A DNA stretch of 27,367 bases from an uncultured Clostridia bacterium (lineage in GTDB: Bacteria; Bacillota; Clostridia; Peptostreptococcales; Anaerovoracaceae). Numbering within the stretch: position 1 is the first letter of the stretch; every line of letters starts with the position of its first letter. Where the stretch lies: assembly GCA_946402595.1 (NCBI GenBank), contig CAMIWY010000001.1, forward strand, positions 1 through 27,367, in the 5' to 3' direction. The position numbers and the translations under genes were made by a program. Of the stretch, positions 5,070-16,522 are shown in pieces. The notes beneath the pieces are model-generated. The model saw nothing but the letters and a program-made list of their open reading frames with translations. It had not been told where the DNA came from and did no database searches.

Positions 5070-5642
5070 ATGGCTTCGAAGAAGAACAAAAGAGAATTAA
5101 AGTTCACGCTCAATGACAATGACTATAAGGCCTTCGGCAAGTACCGCATACTGTACACTGAACAGGGACATAAGATGGTCAGAAGGCAGAGGCTGACATA
5201 TCTGTTCGGTGCAGCGATGATCGCCCTCCTGTTTACTGTATTCAAAGTGGAGCAGAGCAGCTTCAGGTACCTTATGTATATCATAGCAGGCGCTTTGGCT
5301 GTAGTGGGTATTTTCTTCGCGGAGGCCCTCGTGCTGAGACAGCAGGACAAAGCGATAGAGGCATCCGCCAACACCGCAGAGAGAGTCAACGCCGGTGAGA
5401 ACACGGTCAGGTTCGATGATGACACTTTCACCACATCCGGCAACGGGGATGATCAGGTGTTTAAATACAGTGACATCAAGCTGATCGATCTTACGGAAGA
5501 AGCCATATATGTATGGATGAGCGACACTATGATCATGCCGCTGCCGCTGCACGCCTTCAGAGGTATGGAAGAGATGAAGGAACTCTGCAAGTGGCTCAGG
5601 GCAAAAGTCGATGAGCAGAACGGAGAGGGCAAAGCTGAATAG
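5070..5642 (+). CDS. YcxB family membrane protein
   Basis: Two N-terminal TM helices, then a PH-like YcxB segment (..F.Y..IK.I..TEEAIYVW......PLP..AF). RBS GGAGAG. Confidence 0.75.
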   Translation: MASKKNKRELKFTLNDNDYKAFGKYRILYTEQGHKMVRRQRLTYLFGAAMIALLFTVFKVEQSSFRYLMYIIAGALAVVGIFFAEALVLRQQDKAIEASANTAERVNAGENTVRFDDDTFTTSGNGDDQVFKYSDIKLIDLTEEAIYVWMSDTMIMPLPLHAFRGMEEMKELCKWLRAKVDEQNGEGKAE

Positions 5643-5741
5643 CATGTGCCGCACCCGCAGCTTGTTTGTAAGATTTCACTAACAACGCTGGATGGCGGTG
5701 TTGTTCGTTGTGAAAAACAACAACAAAATCGCGAAAAGTTG

Positions 5742-5770
5742 TTGACATAACTCAACAAGGTTGCTATATT
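5742..5770 (+). promoter_or_regulatory. sigma-A promoter of the met leader-metNIQ operon
   Basis: TTGACA (5742-5747), 17 nt, TATATT (5765-5770); start site expected near 5777-5778. Confidence 0.85.
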
Positions 5771-5823
5771 ACACTCTAGACGGGAGATAATCCCACCTTA
5801 TTCTATGAAAGGAGCACATTCAC

Positions 5824-5892
5824 ATGACAGGAAGAAGCATGATGATGGAAATGGGAATGATGGGCATGTGCATGTGCAGAGCCGATGAATAG
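5824..5892 (+). CDS. Met-rich leader peptide MTGRSMMMEMGMMGMCMCRADE (22 aa; 9 Met, 2 Cys)
   Basis: Strong RBS AAAGGAG (5808-5814) 9 nt before ATG 5824; stop TAG 5890-5892; lies between the promoter and terminator upstream of metN. Confidence 0.85.
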   Translation: MTGRSMMMEMGMMGMCMCRADE

Positions 5893-5901
5893 CATAGGAT
5901 A

Positions 5902-5967
5902 AGGTCATAACGAAGCCGACACTATGAGTTTTCTCATGTATCATACCGGGGCAGGTCGTTAGGACCT
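5902..5967 (+). promoter_or_regulatory. Candidate antiterminator helix of the met attenuator
   Basis: Hand pairing: AGGTC 5902-06/GACCT 5963-67; TAACGA 5908-13/TCGTTA 5956-61; GCC 5915-17/GGC 5950-52; TATGA 5923-27/TCATA 5941-45. Overlaps and excludes the terminator. Confidence 0.65.
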
Positions 5968-5978
5968 GCCCCGGTTTT
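5945..5978 (+). terminator. Attenuator terminator upstream of metN
   Basis: Perfect 13-bp stem ACCGGGGCAGGTC/GACCTGCCCCGGT, GTTAG loop, short T tract (5975-5978). Confidence 0.85.
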
Positions 5979-6031
5979 CGTAAGATAATCATTTCACTGA
6001 TCAGTAGAAGGCAAAGGCAGAGGTAAAGAAA

Positions 6032-7102
6032 TTGAGTGACTGTATTATCAGCCTGCAGGGAGTGACCAAGGAATTCGGTACCAAGGGCGGCAAGGTTGTC
6101 GCGCTGAGGGACATAAACCTGGATATCGAGAGAGGCGACTCCTTCGGCATCATAGGACTTTCCGGAGCGGGGAAGTCGACCCTCGTGAGGACCATCAATC
6201 TTCTCGAGCAGCCCACGGAGGGCAAAGTCCTGTTTGACGGAAACGTTCTGACGGGTCTCAGGAGCAGAGATCTCAATCTGCACAGGCGCAAGATATCCAT
6301 GATTTTCCAGCAGTTCAACCTGCTGATGCAGAGGGACGCCATTGGAAATATCTGCTTCCCGATGGAGATAGCAGGGGTTCCGAAGGCGGAGGCAAGAGCC
6401 CGTGCTGAAGAACTTCTCAAGGTAGTTGATCTTGAGGACAGGGCGCACTCGTTCCCGTCGCAGCTGTCAGGAGGACAGAAGCAGAGAGTGGCGATCGCGA
6501 GAGCTCTTGCATCGGATCCTGAAGTCATACTTTGTGACGAGGCAACATCGGCTCTCGACCCTAAGACTACACGTTCTATACTGAAGCTGCTGAGGCAGAT
6601 CAATGAAGAGCGAGGAATCACACTGGTGGTCATCACTCACGAGATGGGAGTCATCAAGCAGCTCTGCAACAAGGTCGCAGTTATAGAAAACGGTGAGATC
6701 GTGGAGCAGGGGGATGTGGACGAAGTGTTCACCAAGCCTAAGACAAGAGCGGCGCGCAAGCTGTTCTTCCCTGACAGCGAGGACAGAGAGACCGCTGAGA
6801 CGAGAACGGCAACGAAGAACAGGCTGAGGCTCGTATTCAATGAGAAGACGGCATACAAACCGATCATCTCGAACATGATCCTCGAGACGGGTGAACCGGT
6901 CAACCTGCTGTATGCAAATCTGGATGCTCTTCTCGATGAGCAGATAGGACAGATGGTCATCTGTCTGTCGGATAATAAGGAAGCGGCAGAGAGACAGAAA
7001 GCGTACCTCATCAAGGAGGGCGTGGACTTTACAGAAATACCGGAGGATTCAGACTACTATGACTATCCTCTGCACGGATTCGGAGAGGAGGTGACAGAGT
7101 AA
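6032..7102 (+). CDS. metN: Methionine ABC transporter ATP-binding protein
   Basis: GLSGAGKST Walker A, LSGGQKQRVAIARALA signature, LCDEATSALDP, ITHEM, C-terminal NIL-type domain. TTG start with GAGGT RBS; the stop overlaps the metI start (TAATG). Confidence 0.95.
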   Translation: MSDCIISLQGVTKEFGTKGGKVVALRDINLDIERGDSFGIIGLSGAGKSTLVRTINLLEQPTEGKVLFDGNVLTGLRSRDLNLHRRKISMIFQQFNLLMQRDAIGNICFPMEIAGVPKAEARARAEELLKVVDLEDRAHSFPSQLSGGQKQRVAIARALASDPEVILCDEATSALDPKTTRSILKLLRQINEERGITLVVITHEMGVIKQLCNKVAVIENGEIVEQGDVDEVFTKPKTRAARKLFFPDSEDRETAETRTATKNRLRLVFNEKTAYKPIISNMILETGEPVNLLYANLDALLDEQIGQMVICLSDNKEAAERQKAYLIKEGVDFTEIPEDSDYYDYPLHGFGEEVTE

Positions 7103-7764
7103 TGGATACAGGCACATTGGTATCATTACTGGGAGAAGGCCTTCTCCAGACACTGTACATGACAGTGCTCGGAACACTGATGTCATATGTGATCGGACTT
7201 CCGATTGGAGTCTCACTCATAGTCACCGGACCTAACGGTATAAGACCGGTAGCCATATATAACAAGGTGATGGGCTTCATCGTCAACGTAATAAGATCCG
7301 TACCTTTCCTCATACTGATGATCGCCCTGATGCCGTACATCAGGAAGGTGATCGGCACCGGCATCGGAACCAGCGCAACGACAGCAGCACTCGTGGTAGC
7401 GGCAGCGCCGTTTGTGGCAAGGCTGGTGGAGCAGTCACTGCTCGAGGTAGATCCGGGAGTCATCGAGGCAGCGCAGGCGATGGGCGCCGGCAACTTCCAG
7501 ATAATACGCAAAGTCCTGCTTCTTGAGGCAAGGCCGTCTCTTCTGAACGGAGCGGCGGTCGCGACTATCAATATCCTCGGCTACTCCGCAATGGCGGGAA
7601 TAGTCGGAGGCGGCGGACTCGGCGACCTGGCCATCAGATACGGACTGTACAGATTCCAGCCGTCGATCATGTGGATCACGATAATCGTCCTCGTCATACT
7701 GGTGCAGATACTGCAGGAAGCAGGCATCAGATTAGCGGCCAGAATGGACAACAGGATAAACTAG
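7102..7764 (+). CDS. metI: Methionine ABC transporter permease
   Basis: LLQTLYMT, VNVIRSVPFLILMIAL, ARLVEQSLLEVDPGVIEAAQAMGA, GYSAMAGIVGGGGLGDLAIRYG motifs. Confidence 0.95.
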   Translation: MDTGTLVSLLGEGLLQTLYMTVLGTLMSYVIGLPIGVSLIVTGPNGIRPVAIYNKVMGFIVNVIRSVPFLILMIALMPYIRKVIGTGIGTSATTAALVVAAAPFVARLVEQSLLEVDPGVIEAAQAMGAGNFQIIRKVLLLEARPSLLNGAAVATINILGYSAMAGIVGGGGLGDLAIRYGLYRFQPSIMWITIIVLVILVQILQEAGIRLAARMDNRIN

Positions 7765-7862
7765 CCAAATAACTCACCAACAAAATGTGAGAAGTGGATA
7801 TATAATCAATTATAATTGTCATTAACAAGGTATTAATGGGTAATGAGAAAGGAGAACCAACA

Positions 7863-8696
7863 ATGAAGAATCTAAGAAAACTGAGCGTATTTGCAGTAGT
7901 CCTTGCACTCGTATTCGCATTCACAGCATGCGGCGGATCCGGCGGCGGAGAATCGGAACCTGATCCTGAGAAGGTCATTAAGGTAGCTGCATCCCCGACA
8001 CCTCATGCAGAGATACTCAATTCTGTAGCAGACAAGCTGGCAGAGGACGGATGGACGCTCGAAGTAGTCGAATTCGATGACTATGTACAGCCTAACGTTG
8101 CTACAACAGACGGAGATGTAGATGCGAACTACTTCCAGCACGTTCCGTATCTTGACCAGTACAATGAGGAAAACGGAACGAACCTCGTTGCTGTAGCTGA
8201 TGTACACTATGAGCCGATGGGCGTATATGCAGGCACCAAGGACAGCTTTGACGCTATCGCTGATGGAGACAAGATCGGAGTTCCTAATGATGTTACCAAC
8301 GAGGCAAGAGCACTTCTCCTGCTCGAGGCCAACGGAGTCATCAAGCTCAAGGACGGTGCAGGCGTAGCTGCAACCAAGGCAGACATCGTTGAGAATCCTA
8401 AGAATGTCGAGATCGTTGAACTTGAAGCAGCAACTATCCCGGCTTCACTTCCGGACCTCGCATTAGGCGTTATCAATGCCAACTATGCTATCGGAGCAGG
8501 ACTCAAGCTTGACGAGTCACTTGCTTATGAGGCAGAGGATTCACTCTCCGCTGATACATATGTAAACGTACTCGTTGTAAACGAGGAGAACAAGGACAGC
8601 GAGAAGACAAAGGCTCTCATCGCAGCACTGCAGACTGATGAAGTAAAGCAGTTCATCACAGATACATTCAACGGCGCGGTACTGCCTAAGTTCTAG
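7863..8696 (+). CDS. metQ: Methionine ABC transporter substrate-binding lipoprotein (MetQ/NlpA)
   Basis: Start ATG 7863 after GAAAGGAG; signal peptide with lipobox FTAC; ASPTPHAEIL, F.DYVQPN, DANYFQH.PYL, PND.TN.ARAL.LL motifs. Confidence 0.95.
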   Translation: MKNLRKLSVFAVVLALVFAFTACGGSGGGESEPDPEKVIKVAASPTPHAEILNSVADKLAEDGWTLEVVEFDDYVQPNVATTDGDVDANYFQHVPYLDQYNEENGTNLVAVADVHYEPMGVYAGTKDSFDAIADGDKIGVPNDVTNEARALLLLEANGVIKLKDGAGVAATKADIVENPKNVEIVELEAATIPASLPDLALGVINANYAIGAGLKLDESLAYEAEDSLSADTYVNVLVVNEENKDSEKTKALIAALQTDEVKQFITDTFNGAVLPKF

Positions 8697-10135: not shown

Positions 10136-13100
10136 ATGGACAAGAATTTCATCAAGGTAGACAAATGGGGAGAGTGTCTGTGGGGCATTGACGAGACCGG
10201 CAGACTCTTCATCAACGGAGGGCAGGCCGAGAGCGTGGATGACAGCGGTATTCCATGGGAAAACTACCGCACACTCATCGCAGAAGCCGCGGTCATCGGT
10301 GAAGTGACGTTCCCTGAAGGGGCATCGCTTGCCGGACTCTTTAAGGGCTGCAAGGGACTCGAGGCAGCAGACCTCAGCGGTTTCAATACAGCAGGCGTAA
10401 CTGACATGCGCTCGATGTTCGAAGGCTGCACCAGACTGAGAGAGCTGGATATATCCTCCTTCGACACGACCGGATGCTCAGACATGAACAGAATGTTCGC
10501 AAAGTGCGCAAGACTTACGGACATCCTGCTCGGACCTGAATTCAGCCTGAACGGAGACGGAACGACTTCATGCGACAGACTCGCAGTCAAGGAAGCCGGC
10601 AAGTACAGAAGGGCAAGAGTCATCTCCGCAGAGGGCTGCCTGGTCATCTATCATGAGAATGCAGGCAGGGATATCTCAACTGAGAGGAAGACAGTCCCTG
10701 ATTTCAGATACCTGATCGAGGATCCGATGTATGCGTCGCCTGGTGAAAAGTTCATCTTCATCGGATGGAACACCGAGGCTGACGGTTCGGGCACCATGCT
10801 CCAGCCAGGCCAGGAGATCAATAATGTCGATGAGGATCTCAACCTGTATGCCGTATGGGCGAGCGCACCTGAGATCGGAGAGGTGCGTCCTGTTGATGAG
10901 TTCACCTTCGGACAGCCGATACCTTTCGAACTGCCTGAGATCGTTTCTGCCGGAGACCCTAATGTAACCGGCTACCTTGAGGTCAGCCCGAACGGAGAAG
11001 AGGGCACATGGCAGGCGATAGACCACAACACGATCCTGCCTGTAAAATGCAACGGCTGGCTTGTAAGACTCTGCGCTTCCAACAGTGTAGGCAAAACGGT
11101 TTCGAACGCCGTTGAGCTGAGGATCAAGAAGGCCGCCAAGGATATGTCAGGCGTACGCTGGGCTGAAGACAGCAACATGACATATGACGGCACACCTAAG
11201 CACGTATGGATCGAAGGCCTCCCGGTCGGAGTGCATGCTGAGTACGAAGGCAACACCGCGACTGAGGCGGGCACCTATGTTGCGACCGTAAACCTTGATT
11301 TTGACGAAGACAATTTCAGCGAACCTTCGATCATGAAGGAATATGAGTGGTCTGTCAGAAAGGCTTCATATGACATGTCGCAGGTACACTGGGACTATGA
11401 GGATGCCTTTACCTATGACGGCACCGAAAGAAGCGTTGAGCTCACAGGACTCCCTGAGGGCGTTACAGCGACATATGAAAACAACATAGCTGCAAGAGCC
11501 GGAATCTATACCGCAACGGCAACTCTCCATTACGATGAGACCAACTACGAAAAGCCTGCGGACATAGTTCCGTGCGTATGGGAGATAGAGAGAGCGGTGA
11601 TCGATCCGCTGACACTGGAGTGGTCTGACTATGGCAAGTTCGTATATGACGGACAGCCAAAGTCCGTACGCATCCTCAACCTTCCGGATGATGCGGAGAT
11701 CGACTATGACGGAGCCGAGGAGACACCGGCCGGCAAATACCTTGCGAGAGGAACATTCACCGGAAACTACAGAGCTTCCGGTCCTGTGGAGTATGAGTGG
11801 GAAATCACCAAGGCTTCATATGACATGGGAGCCGTAAGATGGGGCTATGACAAGCCTTTCGATTTTGACCGCGAGACACACGAAGTCACCCTGGAAGGAG
11901 TTCCGGAAGAGCTCGGAGTAAAATACCGCAATCAGGTCGGCATCGCTGCCGGTGACTACAAGGCAGTTGCGATGTTCATCAACCCGGATACTCACAACTA
12001 CTTCACTCCGGAAGACATGACTCTTAACTGGAATATCAAAAAGAGAGTCATAGATATGTCCGGCGTAAAGTGGAACTATCAGGGACCTTTCACATACGAC
12101 GGTGAGACCAAGAGCGTCGAGCTGACCGGAGTGCCTGAAGGCATTCACGTTGACTATGAGAATGCAAGCGGATTCAACGCCGGAGTATATAACGCACACG
12201 CTGTCCTTGAGTATGATTCGGACAACATGTACGCTCTGCAGCCTGCTGACTGCCAGTGGAAGATCAACAAAGACAGATTCGACATCTCCGGAGTGCACTG
12301 GGATTACAGCGAAGCTTTCACATATGACGGAAGAGAGCACGGAGTATATCTCGAGGGACTCCCTGAAGGCATCAATGTTGAGTATTCAGACAATATCAAG
12401 ATAGACGCAGGCAAGTATGTAGCTACGGCATCGCTCAGCCCGAGCGATCCTATGAACTATGAGACACCTGAGGTCAACGGCTGCACATGGGCCATCAATA
12501 AGGCACAGATAGAGAAGCCGGGTCTTGAGTGGACAGACTGCAGCGGTTTTGTCTTCGATGGAACCGACAAGATCGTAGAGATCACGAGTGACATCGGAGA
12601 TGATGTTACTGTTGAGTACGCATTCAATAAGTACCACAATGCCGGCAGATACTATGCCAAGGCACTGTTCACGGCTGTCGATGACAGCAACTACCTGCCG
12701 CCGAAGCCGATGGGATATTCGTGGAGCATCAGCAAGGCAGACCCTGACATCACAGGCGCAGTGTGGGATTACACATCGCCGTTTACATACGATGGCAGCA
12801 GGAAGAGCGTAAGACTTTCAGGCGTGCCGGAAGGTGTAAGGGTAAGCTATACCAATGCCAGCGCTACGGATGCGGGTGATTACACAGCTATCGCCAGATT
12901 CACAGTAAGCGACACTGCCAACTACAATACGAGCATTCCTGACATGACACTCGACTGGAGCATCGAGAAGGCCGAGTACGATCTCAGAAATGCAAAATGG
13001 CAGGAGGAGAGAAAGTTCACATACGACGGCTATGAGAAGGAGGTCGTTATCAACGGACTTCCGGACGGCCTTGAACCTGTATACAGCGGAAACACTGCAG

Positions 13101-16100
13101 CAAATGCAGGCGTTTACATGGCTGAGGCAGCGTTCGCATTTGATGAGAAGAATTATGAGAGACCTGAGTTCCGCGAATGCACCTGGGAGATAGACAAGGC
13201 ACCGGTAGATATATCCGGGATCAGCTGGTCTTATGAGAAGCCGTTCACATATGACGGATCCGAGAAGACTGTCTATGCTGTCGACATTCCTGAAGGCTGC
13301 TACGCTGTATACGGAAACACAAGAGCATCACAGGCCGGAACATATGTCGGAACTGCAGAGATAAGACCTGAAGATACTGCCAACTACACTCCGGTCAAGC
13401 TCGGCAATGTCACCTGGAGAATAGAGAAGGGTGACTACGATATGAGCCACGCATACTGGGATTACGACAGGCCGTTTACATATGACGGAACTGAACATAA
13501 GGTCGTGATCAAGGGCCTGCCTGAGGGTGTAACACCTACATACAGAAACAACGAGGCAGCTGATGCCGGCACATATGAGGCATCAGTAACGTTCAGAGGC
13601 GCAGATGAAAGGAACTATAAAGTACCTTCCTTTGCAAACTGTGAGTGGACTGTAAAGAAGGCAGATTTTGACATGTCATCCGTCCAGTGGAACTACAGCG
13701 GAGAGTTCAGCTACACCGGGAGGATGCATGAGGTCGAGCTGAGAGGCCTGCCTGAAGGCGTACGTCCGGTATATTCGGGCAATGCAGCAGCAGCGACAGG
13801 CTTCTACGAAGCAACAGCTGACCTGATCCCGTTTGACCAGAGCAACTACAACAAGCCGTACGTAGACAGCTGCAAGTGGCGCATCGTCAAGGCTGACTAC
13901 GAGATGGGTGCCGTAAAGTGGGACTACACAGATGCCAAGGTATATAACGGAAGAGTCCAGAGTGTAATGCTCGAGCAGCTTCCTAACGGAGTCAGCGCTG
14001 ACTACAGGAACAACGAGGCGACCGGTGCTGGCAAGTATACCGCAAGGGCCATCCTCAAGGTATCCGATGAGGCCAACTACAATACACCGACCGTAGCAGA
14101 CTGCGACTGGGAGATCATCAGGGCAGACTACGACATGAGCGGAGCTGAGTGGGATTACCAGCCTGATTCATTCACATACGACGGAGAGAGAAAGAGCATA
14201 GAACTCTTCAATCTCCCGGAGAATGTCACGGCGGCATACGAGGGCAACAGCGGATTCCTCGCAGGAGACTATGTTGCCACGGCTTCCTTCAGAACATCAG
14301 ACAGCAACTTCAATGCTCCTGAGACAGTCACCTTCCCTTGGCACATCGGCAAGGCGGAGTATGACATGTCCGGCGTGAAGTGGGACTACACCGGAGAGTT
14401 CGTCTACGACGGAACTCCTAAGAGGGTCGATCTCACAGGCGTTCCTGAAGGACTCAGTGTGGAGTACGAAGACAACTCGGCAACCGATGCAGGAACCTAC
14501 ATCGCTGTTGCCAGATTCAGGACCAACACGGGCAACTACAGCACTCCTGATCCTATGAGCTGCACATGGACCATAAACAAGGCTGATCCGGATATCCGCA
14601 GACTCAGATGGGACTATTCACAGCCGTTCACCTATGACGGAAGCGAGATGAAGGTAGAGCTCGCAGGCATTCCTGAGACAATCACGGCTGAATACTACGG
14701 CAACACAGGAACTGAAGTAGGACACTATTCAGCACATGCGACTCTCAGGTCGGTCAATCCTGAGAACTATAACGATCCGGCCATCGCTGACTGCGACTGG
14801 GAGATCGTTAAGGCAGAGTATGACATGTCCGATGCAAGATGGACCGGCGATATGAGATATGTCTATGACGGTACAGAGAAGTCTATCTCTCTCACAGGAC
14901 TGCCTGATGGTGTCCTGCCGATATACGACGGCAATACTGCAACAGAGGCAGGTGAATATACCGCTTCGGCAGACCTCATATACGATGAGCACAACTACAT
15001 CCAGCCGCATATCGGAACTATGGACTGGAGGATCGACAAGGCCGTATACGACATGTCCGGAGTTTCATGGGATTACGAGGACAGCTTTACATATAACGGC
15101 GAGGAGAGATCGATCGCCCTCAAGGGACTGCCGGCAGGCGTAACAGCAGCCTACACGGGCAACACAGGTATCAATGCCGGTGAGTATGAAGCTTCTGCAG
15201 AGCTCAGCTATGATGAGAGGAACTACTTCAGACCTGAATTCGGACCTGTAAGATGGCGCATAGGAATGGCGGATGCACCTGTGGACATAAGCGGCATCAG
15301 CTGGAACTATGAAGGACCGTTCGTATATGACGGAACACCTAAGGGCGTAGCGCTCACGGAGAGAGCTAAGGAACAGGGATTCCTTGAGAGACTGCGCGGA
15401 GTCGCACCTGAGATGGAGCTTGTAGGCGTACCTGAGGGATTCGAGGTAGTATACGAGGACAATACTGCGACGGATGCAGGCGTATACTACGCCAAGGCAA
15501 AACTCGTAAATCCCGCTGACACCAACTACAGAGAGGTCGTCCTGCCTGAGTGCAGATGGGAGATCTCCAAGGCGGGCATAGACATGTCAGGCGTTCACTG
15601 GGATTATGAGAGCCCGTTCGTATATGACGGTGAGGAGAAGAGCGTTCAGCTCGCAGGACTCCCTGAAAATGTCACAGTAATCTATAAGGGAAGTACTGCG
15701 ACAGGCGCCGGCGAATATGAGGCCATGGCTGAGATCGAAGCGGCTGATCCTGTAAACTTCGAGACACCTGAACCTGTCAGAGGATGCTGGTGGCAGATCC
15801 TCAAGGCGAAGTATGACATGTCAGGAGTAGAATGGGCGTACAGCGATGACATCATCTACAACGGTGAGGAGAAGACCGTGAAGCTCACAGGTCTGCCGGA
15901 CGGCGTCACTGTACAGGGATACAGAGGCAACACCGCGATCGATGCCGGTACATACATGGCTGAAGCGATCCTCGACTACAGCAACAAGGACAACTACGAG
16001 GAGCCTACTGTAGCAAGCCTGAAGTGGAGGATCCAGAAGAAGAAGATCAACACATCCGCTGTAAGATGGGATTATGACCCGAGCACGCTGTTCGTATATG

Positions 16101-16522
16101 ATGAGCAGCCTAAGAAGGTAAGCCTTATCGGGCTGCCTAATGATGCTGAAGTCGTATACATCGACAATGTCAAGATCAATGCCGGCACATACACCGCAAG
16201 AGCCAGACTTACATACGATACAAGAAACTGCGAGGCTGACGAGATCGCTGATCTCAAGTGGAAGATCGAGAAGGCGAACTATGATACCGAGCATGTTCAC
16301 TGGAGCTATGACAAGCCTTTCGTCTACGATGCATATGAGAAGAGCATCGTACTGAGAAATGTTCCTAAGTCGATCGATGTCAGATACAGGGACAACAAGG
16401 CTATTGCCGTCGGAACATACACGGCCAAGGCTTACCTGACATACGACAGTGAGAACTACAATGCACCTGAGATCGATACGACCATCGACTGGGCTATCGT
16501 TTCGGGCAGAAATGAAGAGTAA
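10136..16522 (+). CDS. 2128-aa multidomain protein: BspA/DUF285-like LRR N-terminus, InlB B-repeat-like domain, then 23 tandem ~77-aa MBG-like repeats
   Basis: N-terminal 'FNT..VTDM.SMF.GC..L..LD.S.FDT' repeats; 'Y..N...F.GWNT.ADGSG....PG......LYAVW' near 10640-10860. In-frame TAA at 10121 fixes the start; RBS AAAGGA. Confidence 0.85.
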   Translation: MDKNFIKVDKWGECLWGIDETGRLFINGGQAESVDDSGIPWENYRTLIAEAAVIGEVTFPEGASLAGLFKGCKGLEAADLSGFNTAGVTDMRSMFEGCTRLRELDISSFDTTGCSDMNRMFAKCARLTDILLGPEFSLNGDGTTSCDRLAVKEAGKYRRARVISAEGCLVIYHENAGRDISTERKTVPDFRYLIEDPMYASPGEKFIFIGWNTEADGSGTMLQPGQEINNVDEDLNLYAVWASAPEIGEVRPVDEFTFGQPIPFELPEIVSAGDPNVTGYLEVSPNGEEGTWQAIDHNTILPVKCNGWLVRLCASNSVGKTVSNAVELRIKKAAKDMSGVRWAEDSNMTYDGTPKHVWIEGLPVGVHAEYEGNTATEAGTYVATVNLDFDEDNFSEPSIMKEYEWSVRKASYDMSQVHWDYEDAFTYDGTERSVELTGLPEGVTATYENNIAARAGIYTATATLHYDETNYEKPADIVPCVWEIERAVIDPLTLEWSDYGKFVYDGQPKSVRILNLPDDAEIDYDGAEETPAGKYLARGTFTGNYRASGPVEYEWEITKASYDMGAVRWGYDKPFDFDRETHEVTLEGVPEELGVKYRNQVGIAAGDYKAVAMFINPDTHNYFTPEDMTLNWNIKKRVIDMSGVKWNYQGPFTYDGETKSVELTGVPEGIHVDYENASGFNAGVYNAHAVLEYDSDNMYALQPADCQWKINKDRFDISGVHWDYSEAFTYDGREHGVYLEGLPEGINVEYSDNIKIDAGKYVATASLSPSDPMNYETPEVNGCTWAINKAQIEKPGLEWTDCSGFVFDGTDKIVEITSDIGDDVTVEYAFNKYHNAGRYYAKALFTAVDDSNYLPPKPMGYSWSISKADPDITGAVWDYTSPFTYDGSRKSVRLSGVPEGVRVSYTNASATDAGDYTAIARFTVSDTANYNTSIPDMTLDWSIEKAEYDLRNAKWQEERKFTYDGYEKEVVINGLPDGLEPVYSGNTAANAGVYMAEAAFAFDEKNYERPEFRECTWEIDKAPVDISGISWSYEKPFTYDGSEKTVYAVDIPEGCYAVYGNTRASQAGTYVGTAEIRPEDTANYTPVKLGNVTWRIEKGDYDMSHAYWDYDRPFTYDGTEHKVVIKGLPEGVTPTYRNNEAADAGTYEASVTFRGADERNYKVPSFANCEWTVKKADFDMSSVQWNYSGEFSYTGRMHEVELRGLPEGVRPVYSGNAAAATGFYEATADLIPFDQSNYNKPYVDSCKWRIVKADYEMGAVKWDYTDAKVYNGRVQSVMLEQLPNGVSADYRNNEATGAGKYTARAILKVSDEANYNTPTVADCDWEIIRADYDMSGAEWDYQPDSFTYDGERKSIELFNLPENVTAAYEGNSGFLAGDYVATASFRTSDSNFNAPETVTFPWHIGKAEYDMSGVKWDYTGEFVYDGTPKRVDLTGVPEGLSVEYEDNSATDAGTYIAVARFRTNTGNYSTPDPMSCTWTINKADPDIRRLRWDYSQPFTYDGSEMKVELAGIPETITAEYYGNTGTEVGHYSAHATLRSVNPENYNDPAIADCDWEIVKAEYDMSDARWTGDMRYVYDGTEKSISLTGLPDGVLPIYDGNTATEAGEYTASADLIYDEHNYIQPHIGTMDWRIDKAVYDMSGVSWDYEDSFTYNGEERSIALKGLPAGVTAAYTGNTGINAGEYEASAELSYDERNYFRPEFGPVRWRIGMADAPVDISGISWNYEGPFVYDGTPKGVALTERAKEQGFLERLRGVAPEMELVGVPEGFEVVYEDNTATDAGVYYAKAKLVNPADTNYREVVLPECRWEISKAGIDMSGVHWDYESPFVYDGEEKSVQLAGLPENVTVIYKGSTATGAGEYEAMAEIEAADPVNFETPEPVRGCWWQILKAKYDMSGVEWAYSDDIIYNGEEKTVKLTGLPDGVTVQGYRGNTAIDAGTYMAEAILDYSNKDNYEEPTVASLKWRIQKKKINTSAVRWDYDPSTLFVYDEQPKKVSLIGLPNDAEVVYIDNVKINAGTYTARARLTYDTRNCEADEIADLKWKIEKANYDTEHVHWSYDKPFVYDAYEKSIVLRNVPKSIDVRYRDNKAIAVGTYTAKAYLTYDSENYNAPEIDTTIDWAIVSGRNEE
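11132..16504 (+). repeat. 23 degenerate protein-level repeats (consensus A.YDMSGV.W.Y..PF.YDG..K.V.L.GLP.GV...Y.GN.A..AG.Y.A.A.......NY..P....C.W.I.K)
   Basis: Counted by the W..../(Y/F).YDG and terminal W.I.K anchors in the translation; repeats are strongly diverged at DNA level. Confidence 0.9.

Follow-up and report, generated by a model that had tools for sequence, protein, structure and literature searches.

The stretch of DNA analyzed here (the window) comprises 27,367 nucleotides of contig CAMIWY010000001.1, from the assembly GCA_946402595.1 of an uncultured Clostridia bacterium of the family Anaerovoracaceae, and contains on its + strand the metNIQ operon for methionine import together with a leader carrying a methionine-rich upstream open reading frame (uORF), which leader is the subject of this report. 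The operon begins with metN (6032–7102, with a TTG start codon), encoding the ATPase of the ATP-binding-cassette importer, whose top match among the NCBIfam models was TIGR02314 (E = 1.8e-99), the 333 bits of that match being below the 499.7-bit equivalog cut-off. The permease gene metI (7102–7764; NF008049, E = 2.1e-57) and the gene of the substrate-binding lipoprotein, metQ (7836–8696; NF008285/TIGR00363, E = 3.9e-61), then follow. An earlier note on this DNA, made from the letters alone, had proposed that the leader is an attenuator in which the translation of a leader peptide senses methionine.

All the features of the leader lie on the + strand. Its promoter, of the sigma-70/SigA type, extends from 5742 to 5770, with the −35 box TTGACA at 5742–5747, a 17-nt spacer, and a TG-extended −10 box TATATT at 5765–5770; 11 of the 12 consensus positions are matched, so that the sigma-A promoter of the earlier note was borne out, and comparable TTGACA...TATATT/TATAGT boxes are present in the leaders of relatives. 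From the position of these boxes, transcription probably starts near 5777. The uORF (5824–5892), whose 22 codons encode MTGRSMMMEMGMMGMCMCRADE and end at the stop codon TAG (5890–5892), is preceded by the Shine–Dalgarno (SD) sequence AGGAG at 5810–5814, 9 nt before the ATG at 5824. Rereading of the sequence confirmed that nine of those 22 codons (41%) are AUG, eight of them internal and including the runs MMM and MM; two Cys codons are also present. The internal Met codons occupy 5839–5847, 5851–5853, 5857–5862, 5866–5868, and 5872–5874, that is, eight within 36 nt (5839–5874). Among the 18,194 open reading frames (ORFs) of 8 to 40 codons in the 1.81-Mb assembly, this uORF is the sole one with nine Met codons, a uniqueness in Met content arguing that it is not a chance ORF.

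The leader is not confined to this genome. By BLASTN, 22 of 24 congeneric genomes contained it, the matches spanning exactly 5797–5973, while in a family-wide sample of 400 genomes it was found in 18, belonging to 8 of 121 genera. When the core of the Met run was scanned for as an exact pattern in 185,579 species, each represented by a single genome, 103 stretches were obtained; of the 80 matches listed, 68 were small ORFs, and the remaining 12, lying inside long ORFs of unrelated phyla, were rejected as chance occurrences. The small ORFs among the matches listed came from entries titled Anaerovoracaceae, 'Mogibacterium sp.', or uncultured Clostridiales metagenome-assembled genomes (MAGs) of rumen and gut, and in nearly all of those loci MetN, MetI, and MetQ were encoded 60–290 nt downstream. 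For the comparisons that follow we gathered 68 distinct leaders from several genera, nearly all directly upstream of metNIQ, in which set the Met-rich uORFs that the earlier note had suggested looking for before related metN genes were indeed conserved.

In that set, the SD sequence AAAGGAG was kept in 66 of the 68 leaders, with an ATG 4–10 nt further on. Taking the first such ATG without regard to its frame, we found that in 66 of the 68 it shared the frame of the Met run, with no stop in between. The spacers between start codon and Met run measured 15, 18, 30, 33, 36, or 39 nt, all multiples of three, and such a series of six distinct lengths would not be expected of a non-coding RNA, with the reservation that the relatives compared are not independent of one another. 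The peptides conform to the consensus M-x(3-9)-M-M-(M)-[EDNTV]-M-[GRNE]-M-M-G-M-[CRY]-M-[CR]-x(3-9), in which the Met codons are invariant and the flanking codons differ in both sequence and length, there being 8–10 Met per uORF in 67 of the 68 relatives. The last Met codon stands 4–6 codons ahead of the stop in 55 of the 68, and the stop codon itself occurs at no fewer than three positions (e.g., ...RADE*, ...GADIA*, ...RAGNSIG*); the first paired base of the antiterminator strand described below is nevertheless located between −2 and +16 nt from that stop in 64 of the 65 leaders aligned. The two Cys codons behave differently from those for Met: in L016, L048, L073, L132, and L134 UGC is changed to CGC or CGU (Arg) along with a compensatory change in the paired strand corresponding to 5814–5826. 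Since the Cys codons are thus replaceable by Arg with compensation, they would serve base pairing, and the sensed residue would be methionine.

The uORF is followed by an intrinsic terminator (5945–5978), which consists of a G+C-rich stem of 13 bp (5945–5957/5963–5975), the loop GUUAG (5958–5962), and a U tract at 5975–5978. That tract, UUUU-C, is short in the window; close relatives have 5–7 U. The terminator was recovered in 65 of the 68 leaders and, as the earlier note had it, the 13-bp stem appears in the predicted folds; furthermore, the stem covaries, with double changes in 12 of the 13 pairs. The apex GGUC-GUUAG-GACC, for its part, is almost invariant. As the base of the terminator covaries and yet its apex does not vary, a second constraint must act upon the apex.

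As a whole, the leader (5778–5990) folds with a predicted −77.1 kcal/mol (z = −5.3), none of 200 shuffled sequences being as stable. Two helices absent from the earlier note's description dominate the region upstream of the terminator. The outer one, P1, pairs 5795–5807, a strand that ends 2 nt before the SD sequence, with 5893–5905, directly after the stop codon, in the minimum-free-energy structure; its 13 bp therefore enclose the SD sequence and the whole uORF, and the last 4 nt of its 3′ strand (5902–5905) are common to the antiterminator strand. The inner one, helix B, pairs 5814–5826, containing the last base of the SD sequence as well as the start codon AUG (5824–5826), with 5865–5877 (CAUGUGCAUGUGC), a strand made up of Met-Cys-Met-Cys codons. 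To examine these pairings we used 17 leaders to derive a covariance model, with which 65 distinct leaders were aligned; this alignment (A4) was fitted to the structure being tested, a circumstance to be kept in mind with its covariation figures. In A4, P1 was paired in 89.8% of the cells, with double changes in 11 of 13 pairs, the P1 sequences of distant genera being wholly different (e.g., GAUUAAUUAC/GUAAUUAAUC), and helix B was paired in 98.7%, with double changes in 6 of 12 pairs. When P1, helix B, and the terminator are pooled, the paired cells amount to 91.7%, versus 27–54% with the partner strand slid, and double changes affected 29 of 38 pairs, a figure matched by none of 500 shuffles. 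The same three helices were returned by RNAalifold on a plain MAFFT alignment. This covariation shows the default structure that we would predict for the leader: a long interrupted hairpin, formed by P1 and helix B, that encloses the uORF and buries its start codon, and then the terminator.

The alternative to the terminator is a predicted antiterminator, whose 5′ strand, AGGUC-A-UAACGA-AG-GCC (5902–5917), pairs with a 3′ strand (5950–5967) composed of the upper 5′ arm, the loop, and the top of the 3′ arm of the terminator. The pairs are those of 5902–5906 with 5963–5967, 5908–5913 with 5956–5961, and 5915–5917 with 5950–5952. The duplex was calculated at −16.7 kcal/mol in the window as opposed to −9.6 for shuffled sequences, and at −15 to −20 kcal/mol in most of the genus versus about −9 for shuffled partners; in A4, whose alignment of this strand relied solely on sequence, 82.9% of the cells were paired versus 20–50% upon sliding. 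The support for this candidate antiterminator is accordingly its conserved complementarity plus the invariant apex of the terminator, not covariation. The earlier note had drawn a helix of about 19 bp that consumed the 5′ arm and the loop of the terminator. The core of that helix (5902–5913:5956–5967 and 5915–5917:5950–5952) and its mutual exclusivity with the terminator stood; its distal part was poorly kept, and what is taken is the apex, not the whole 5′ arm. We rejected in particular the distal pairing 5923–5927:5941–5945, which was paired in 58% of the cells and whose region forms a middle hairpin instead.

That middle hairpin (5918–5942) has the strands 5918–5928:5933–5942 with a core, 5924–5928:5933–5937, that was paired in 86.6% of the cells. 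Its strands can alternatively pair with 5893–5897 (96%) and with 5851–5857 (95%), against a high background. The first of these alternatives is the pairing CATAG (5893–5897):CTATG (5922–5926) that had been suggested as the protector of the antiterminator strand. It does exist and is kept in 96%, but the main protector is the stronger 13-bp P1, which uses the same strand with the same CAUAG; we therefore discarded it in that role and retained it solely as a possible intermediate. In the second, the stretch AUGGGAA of the Met-Gly-Met codons (5851–5857) is complementary to UUCUCAU (5931–5937), located in the 3′ half of the middle hairpin, one position changing from G-C to A-U. Here the slid and shuffled controls were also high, the one strand being purine-rich and the other U-rich, and the pairing may constitute a further relay from the position of the ribosome to the middle hairpin. 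At the other end of the leader, a 5′-terminal hairpin GGGA-GAUAA-UCCC (5782–5794) was present in every predicted fold and may stabilize the 5′ end; L004, L008, and L013 have other self-complementary sequences in its place.

In most Firmicutes, genes for methionine transport and biosynthesis are preceded by SAM-I or SAM-III riboswitches, which bind S-adenosylmethionine (SAM), or by Met T-boxes. The whole window, when compared with Rfam at the gathering scores, yielded tRNA only and no SAM, SMK, or T-box element, and at E ≤ 10 the segment 5600–6100 matched just Atu_C4 (13.8 bits) and DnaX (11.1 bits), both at chance level; none of the Rfam models for amino-acid leaders (Thr, His, Leu, Trp, Phe, and others), for T-boxes, or for SAM riboswitches (SAM-I/IV, II/V, III/SMK, VI, and SAM-SAH) matched that segment at the same threshold. 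The earlier note's failure to see SAM-I, SMK, or T-box signatures in these letters thus agrees with the search at E ≤ 10 in 5600–6100. As a positive control, the same genome contains one SAM-I riboswitch (G000:C36:1432–1541, locus L150; 83.9 bits), directly upstream of metK, the gene of S-adenosylmethionine synthetase (L150:1605–2801). Because this element precedes metK and not metNIQ, S-box control exists in this organism but bypasses the importer. There were also two T-box matches below the gathering cut-off of 93 bits: G000:C11:563–811 (− strand; 66.9 bits) and G000:C77:4046–4302 (+ strand; 62.3 bits). The window itself contains a tRNA gene at 2342–2414 (− strand), a gene for a Ca2+/H+ exchanger (cax) after metQ and, downstream of cax, an ORF of 2128 amino acids at 10136–16522 (+ strand).

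Met-rich leaders without sequence kinship to this one were found before methionine-transporter genes elsewhere. A second family of uORFs, MKKLSA..VMKMMGMCMCSMCMFCC.., of 27–43 codons, rich in Met and Cys, and unrelated in sequence to that of the window, occurs at L062, L064, L080, L105, L111, and L114, the member at L105 reading MKMMGMRMGTMCMLC..; each is followed by a strong terminator and then by the gene of a metQ lipoprotein and by metN, in Bacillota and Oscillospiraceae MAGs. This family has the look of an independent Met-codon attenuator serving an operon in which metQ comes first. We also surveyed five members of the Anaerovoracaceae that gave no BLAST match to the leader, namely L153, L154, and three metQ-first operons. 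In L153, from another genus of that family (G042), a divergent uORF encoding MRKTMLMCKLDMMNMKNSICSSGWFALRSM (MRKTMLMCKLDMMNMK..), with 7 Met among 30 codons, lies about 166–76 nt upstream of metN, and a terminator CAGGC..GCCTG followed by T6 directly precedes that gene, with no BLAST similarity to the leader of the window. L154 had a doubtful ORF with five Met, and the region upstream of L163, one of the metQ-first operons, showed a hairpin resembling a terminator and no ORF rich in Met. That Met richness recurs without RNA similarity argues for the sensing of codons rather than for an aptamer.

Taken together, the comparative sequence evidence—the conserved uORF and its Met codons, the position of the stop, the terminator, and the link to metNIQ—supports the attenuator put forward in the earlier note. 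We consider it quite probable that the leader is a ribosome-mediated transcription attenuator that senses methionine by way of the elongator Met-tRNA and controls the metNIQ importer. Our confidence in the detailed path leading from stalling to antitermination, which we propose in what follows, is clearly lower.

To explore that path we folded the leader with the segments that a ribosome would cover masked. The earlier note had suggested folding with 5875–5905 blocked; with this mask, as with the others, the equilibrium fold at full length was always the terminator. Since the terminator wins at full length by about 20 kcal/mol, the choice would have to be kinetic, and the antiterminator would be visible only at intermediate transcript lengths. 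Once 5963 was out, the partial antiterminator (5908–5913:5956–5961 plus 5915–5917:5950–5952) formed in every context. With the transcript ending at 5967, the antiterminator was the minimum-free-energy structure only when 5893–5905 was free, and the full antiterminator was favored only with the 5′ strand of P1 unavailable (a free-energy difference of −5.4 kcal/mol); where nothing prevented P1 from forming, the balance tipped slightly towards the nascent terminator (+1.2 kcal/mol). A ribosome at the stop codon favored the terminator by +3.1 kcal/mol at that same length and by +8.3 kcal/mol at a transcript end of 5969. Over the 65 leaders, the median pairing probability of the antiterminator—an equilibrium value for the first five bases of the terminator 3′ arm (5963–5967) with the strand after the stop—was 0.49 without a mask; it rose to 0.80 when the 5′ part was masked, and fell to 0.45 when a ribosome covered the distal Met codons only and to 0.23 when it stood at the stop.

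We propose that, after transcription has started from about 5777, a ribosome would load at the SD sequence and AUG (5810–5826) while the leader is still growing, and would then have eight AUG codons to decode in a stretch of 36 nt (5839–5874). Formation of the antiterminator (5902–5917:5950–5967) would block closure of the terminator hairpin, with P1 competing for 5902–5905. If methionine were plentiful, the ribosome would reach the stop codon and cover 5893 to about 5905, and upon its release helix B and P1 would re-form; the toehold 5902–5905 would consequently be unavailable as 5956–5967 emerges, in which circumstance the terminator would nucleate and transcription stop. If, alternatively, charged Met-tRNA were scarce, the ribosome would stall in the loop of helix B and its footprint would melt that helix whichever Met codon it stalled upon, because all eight are located in the loop or the 3′ strand of helix B, no more than one footprint away from either of its strands. 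The SD sequence and AUG would then be re-exposed beside the 5′ strand of P1, which helix would have to close a loop of 85 nt around the ribosome. P1 would thus open, or never form, leaving 5893–5917 free for the full antiterminator and permitting read-through into metN. A leader that is not translated at all would fold as P1, helix B, and terminator, and would therefore be off. The weakest link of this model would be the opening of P1 by the stalled ribosome, which step departs from the trp paradigm. The classical geometry attributed to the leader by the earlier note holds as far as the distances to the antiterminator strand are concerned—10 nt for the stop codon and about 28 nt for the last Met codon—but the connection of stalling with antitermination appears less direct than in the trp leader.

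Several observations weigh against this interpretation. The 5′ strand of P1 lies upstream of the SD sequence, where a ribosome stalled on a Met codon would not cover it, and thermodynamic folding keeps P1 closed around such a ribosome, in an energy model that ignores the bulk of the ribosome and any queued or initiating one. The antiterminator falls about 20 kcal/mol short of the complete terminator in stability and pairs with the apex of the latter rather than with its whole 5′ arm; double changes in its pairs were found in only 11 cells, its shuffle controls being exceeded marginally, and the most distant genera keep 6 bp of it (UCUAAC:GUUAGA), which are not predicted to win. The U tract of the window has only 4 U, because of which shortness a simple terminator scan gave no match at the site. 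In addition, a sequence rich in AUG and CAU is self-complementary by nature, so that some of the conserved pairings may be by-products. As to expression, related sequence was present in metatranscriptome runs from several rumen and gut studies, and contigs of three such runs bridge the leader into metN (5600–6171, 5708–6217, and 5831–6357, at about 94–95% identity); these contigs, being assembled and possibly derived from relatives or from DNA carry-over, speak at most for presence and not for attenuation, and contigs of this kind cannot show 3′ ends or transcript levels.

Among the other explanations for the same data, one would make the leader an undescribed riboswitch or tRNA-binding element, with an aptamer for methionine, for SAM, or for uncharged tRNA-Met—whose anticodon CAU could face the AUG repeats—and with an ORF that is incidental or secondary. 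The covariation over the 38-pair structure, the placement of the AUG repeats in the loop of helix B, and a terminator loop conserved in sequence, as in the expression platforms of riboswitches, would all suit such an element, as would the extreme conservation of the nucleotides of the Met run, in which even synonymous sites are kept and GGC and UGC change only with compensation. Methionine, however, has one codon, so that invariant AUGs are what coding would lead one to expect, and helix B accounts for the conservation of the synonymous sites, the invariant positions in GGC and UGC being constrained by its RNA pairing. An aptamer would furthermore leave unexplained that all six spacer lengths preserve the frame, that the SD sequence and its spacing are conserved, and that the stop is tied to the antiterminator strand, as well as the recurrence before methionine-transporter genes of Met-rich uORFs unrelated in sequence, which recurrence fits the sensing of codons; nor is a multi-helix junction or a conserved unpaired core evident, or any match in Rfam. 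We accordingly regard this explanation as unlikely.

An explanation of about the same low probability retains translation as the signal but not methionine as its object: the leader would respond to the rate of translation, to a ribosome-targeting antibiotic, or to an arrest of the nascent peptide in the exit tunnel, as in ermC, tnaC, or SecM. The known leader ORFs of this size in Firmicutes are indeed often antibiotic-responsive, and the core MM(M)-E/D-M-G/R/N-MM-G-M-C-M-C is conserved as amino acids too; within it, though, the residues other than Met differ (E/D/N/T/V, G/R/N/E, C/R/Y) while the Met codons are fixed, the genes regulated are always those of the methionine importer and never resistance genes, and the independent families of Met-rich uORFs share nothing beyond Met richness and a methionine-transport context. 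That the product might be a functional micropeptide rich in Met and Cys, able to bind metals or oxidants or serving as the precursor of a ribosomally synthesized and post-translationally modified peptide, having a terminator of its own and lying merely beside metNIQ, strikes us as very improbable, despite the strong SD sequence, the separate terminator, and the known ability of such peptides to bind Cu or Ag and scavenge oxidants. The nearby genes include none for modification, export, or metal handling; the uORF invariably lies directly upstream of metN and in the same orientation; the terminator apex shows complementarity to the segment after the stop; the Cys is replaceable by Arg; and one would hardly expect a gene intended for expression to have its start codon buried in a conserved helix.

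A Met-sensing attenuator at this site would share with the leaders trpL, hisL, leuL, thrL, pheL, and ilvL of E. coli and Salmonella a short ORF, equipped with an SD sequence and rich in codons related to the operon, an intrinsic terminator before the first gene with an overlapping alternative pairing, a terminating ribosome that abuts the antiterminator strand, and a default fold that terminates when the leader is not translated. The start site of the trpL leader can become sequestered once it has been translated for the first time, and that of the present leader would be similarly open to sequestration. The two differ in that here methionine would be sensed and the operon encodes a transporter rather than a biosynthetic pathway; in that the 5′ strand of the protector lies upstream of the SD sequence, the whole uORF being inside the protector hairpin; in that the regulatory codons are located in the loop and the 3′ strand of a hairpin rather than in a 'segment 1'; and in that the antiterminator takes the apex of the terminator (the loop and the tops of both arms) and not its full 5′ arm. 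The trpL-type leaders have neither sequence nor Rfam similarity to the leader of the window. With the SAM-I (S-box), SAM-III (SMK), and Met T-box elements the leader has in common its location 5′ of a metNIQ-type operon and an output of terminator versus antiterminator; those RNAs, though, sense SAM or uncharged tRNA without translation, whereas the present leader would read codons.

The first amino-acid leader peptides to be reported for Firmicutes were those with His codons before hisS paralogues and hisZ in bacilli (Naville and Gautheret, 2010, PMC2965389), and a Leu-rich attenuator peptide has been reported for ilv-leu of S. aureus (PMC5794164). Like the present leader, these have runs of codons read by the ribosome along with terminators, and replace the usual T-box or riboswitch; they differ from it in amino acid, genes, and lineage (here Peptostreptococcales, Anaerovoracaceae) and have no sequence relationship with it. 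For a methionine transporter of Lactobacillus a preceding T-box was reported (PMC2965389). Leader peptides with Cys codons were predicted before cys and cbs operons of Actinobacteria, and nothing for methionine (Seliverstov et al., 2005, PMC1262725); those, too, are leader peptides for a sulfur amino acid predicted by comparative genomics, but they have runs of Cys without conserved terminators, Rho being proposed in their stead, whereas the Cys codons of the window would be structural and replaceable. Leyn et al. (2014, PMC4239095) make no mention of leader peptides. In the full-text literature we found no leader peptide for methionine, PMC1262725, PMC2965389, and PMC4239095 included, which absence is no proof since subscription journals are little covered there.

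Some of the loci gathered depart from the common arrangement. In L008 (G023), a tandem partial second copy of the uORF (MMMELRMMDMCMCAPK) without an obvious SD sequence lies at 1711–1761, between the terminator and the ribosome-binding site of metN, and the MAG G024 has two copies of the leader on different contigs (C46:31126–31303 and C83:26689–26865), which pair could reflect either a mixture of strains in the bin or the presence of two metNIQ operons. The 3′ arm of the terminator is missing from L005 and L109, with metN directly after the apex; L018 lacks the stretch from the 3′ strand of P1 to the middle hairpin; and L011 lacks the 5′ strand of P1 as well as the SD sequence. These deletion variants could be constitutive or dead alleles, or else assembly errors.

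Leader-peptide attenuation is a textbook mechanism, from whose list of amino acids methionine is, to our knowledge, missing, and in Gram-positive bacteria the control of met genes is generally ascribed to SAM riboswitches, T-boxes, and protein repressors. It seems likely to us that the leaders described here form a family of attenuators in which the translating ribosome senses methionine from a uORF enclosed in a hairpin, replacing S-box or T-box control of methionine import in Clostridia of gut and rumen, and that such attenuators were invented repeatedly and convergently, which last point is suggested by the sequence-unrelated Met-rich leaders of Oscillospiraceae-type MAGs and of another genus of Anaerovoracaceae. 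Within that model, the burial of the start codon by helix B would limit translation to one pioneer ribosome, and the outer helix P1 would compete with the apex-invading antiterminator for a toehold of 4 nt. What would be new with respect to the leader-peptide attenuators described is the specificity for methionine, together with the architecture of the hairpin-enclosed ORF, and methionine is special in this regard, being also the amino acid that starts the leader peptide. The start-burying helix and the enclosed ORF would represent a testable variation on the conversion of ribosome position into RNA fold, and the covariance model plus the peptide signature permit the annotation of a hitherto unannotated element in dozens of MAGs. 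If our interpretation is true, a new amino-acid specificity, as well as leader-peptide attenuators in Clostridia, would be added to those on record, and the tuning of methionine uptake in the abundant and mostly uncultured Anaerovoracaceae of rumen and gut would be explained, in that metK would respond to SAM, and the main methionine importer to charged tRNA-Met.

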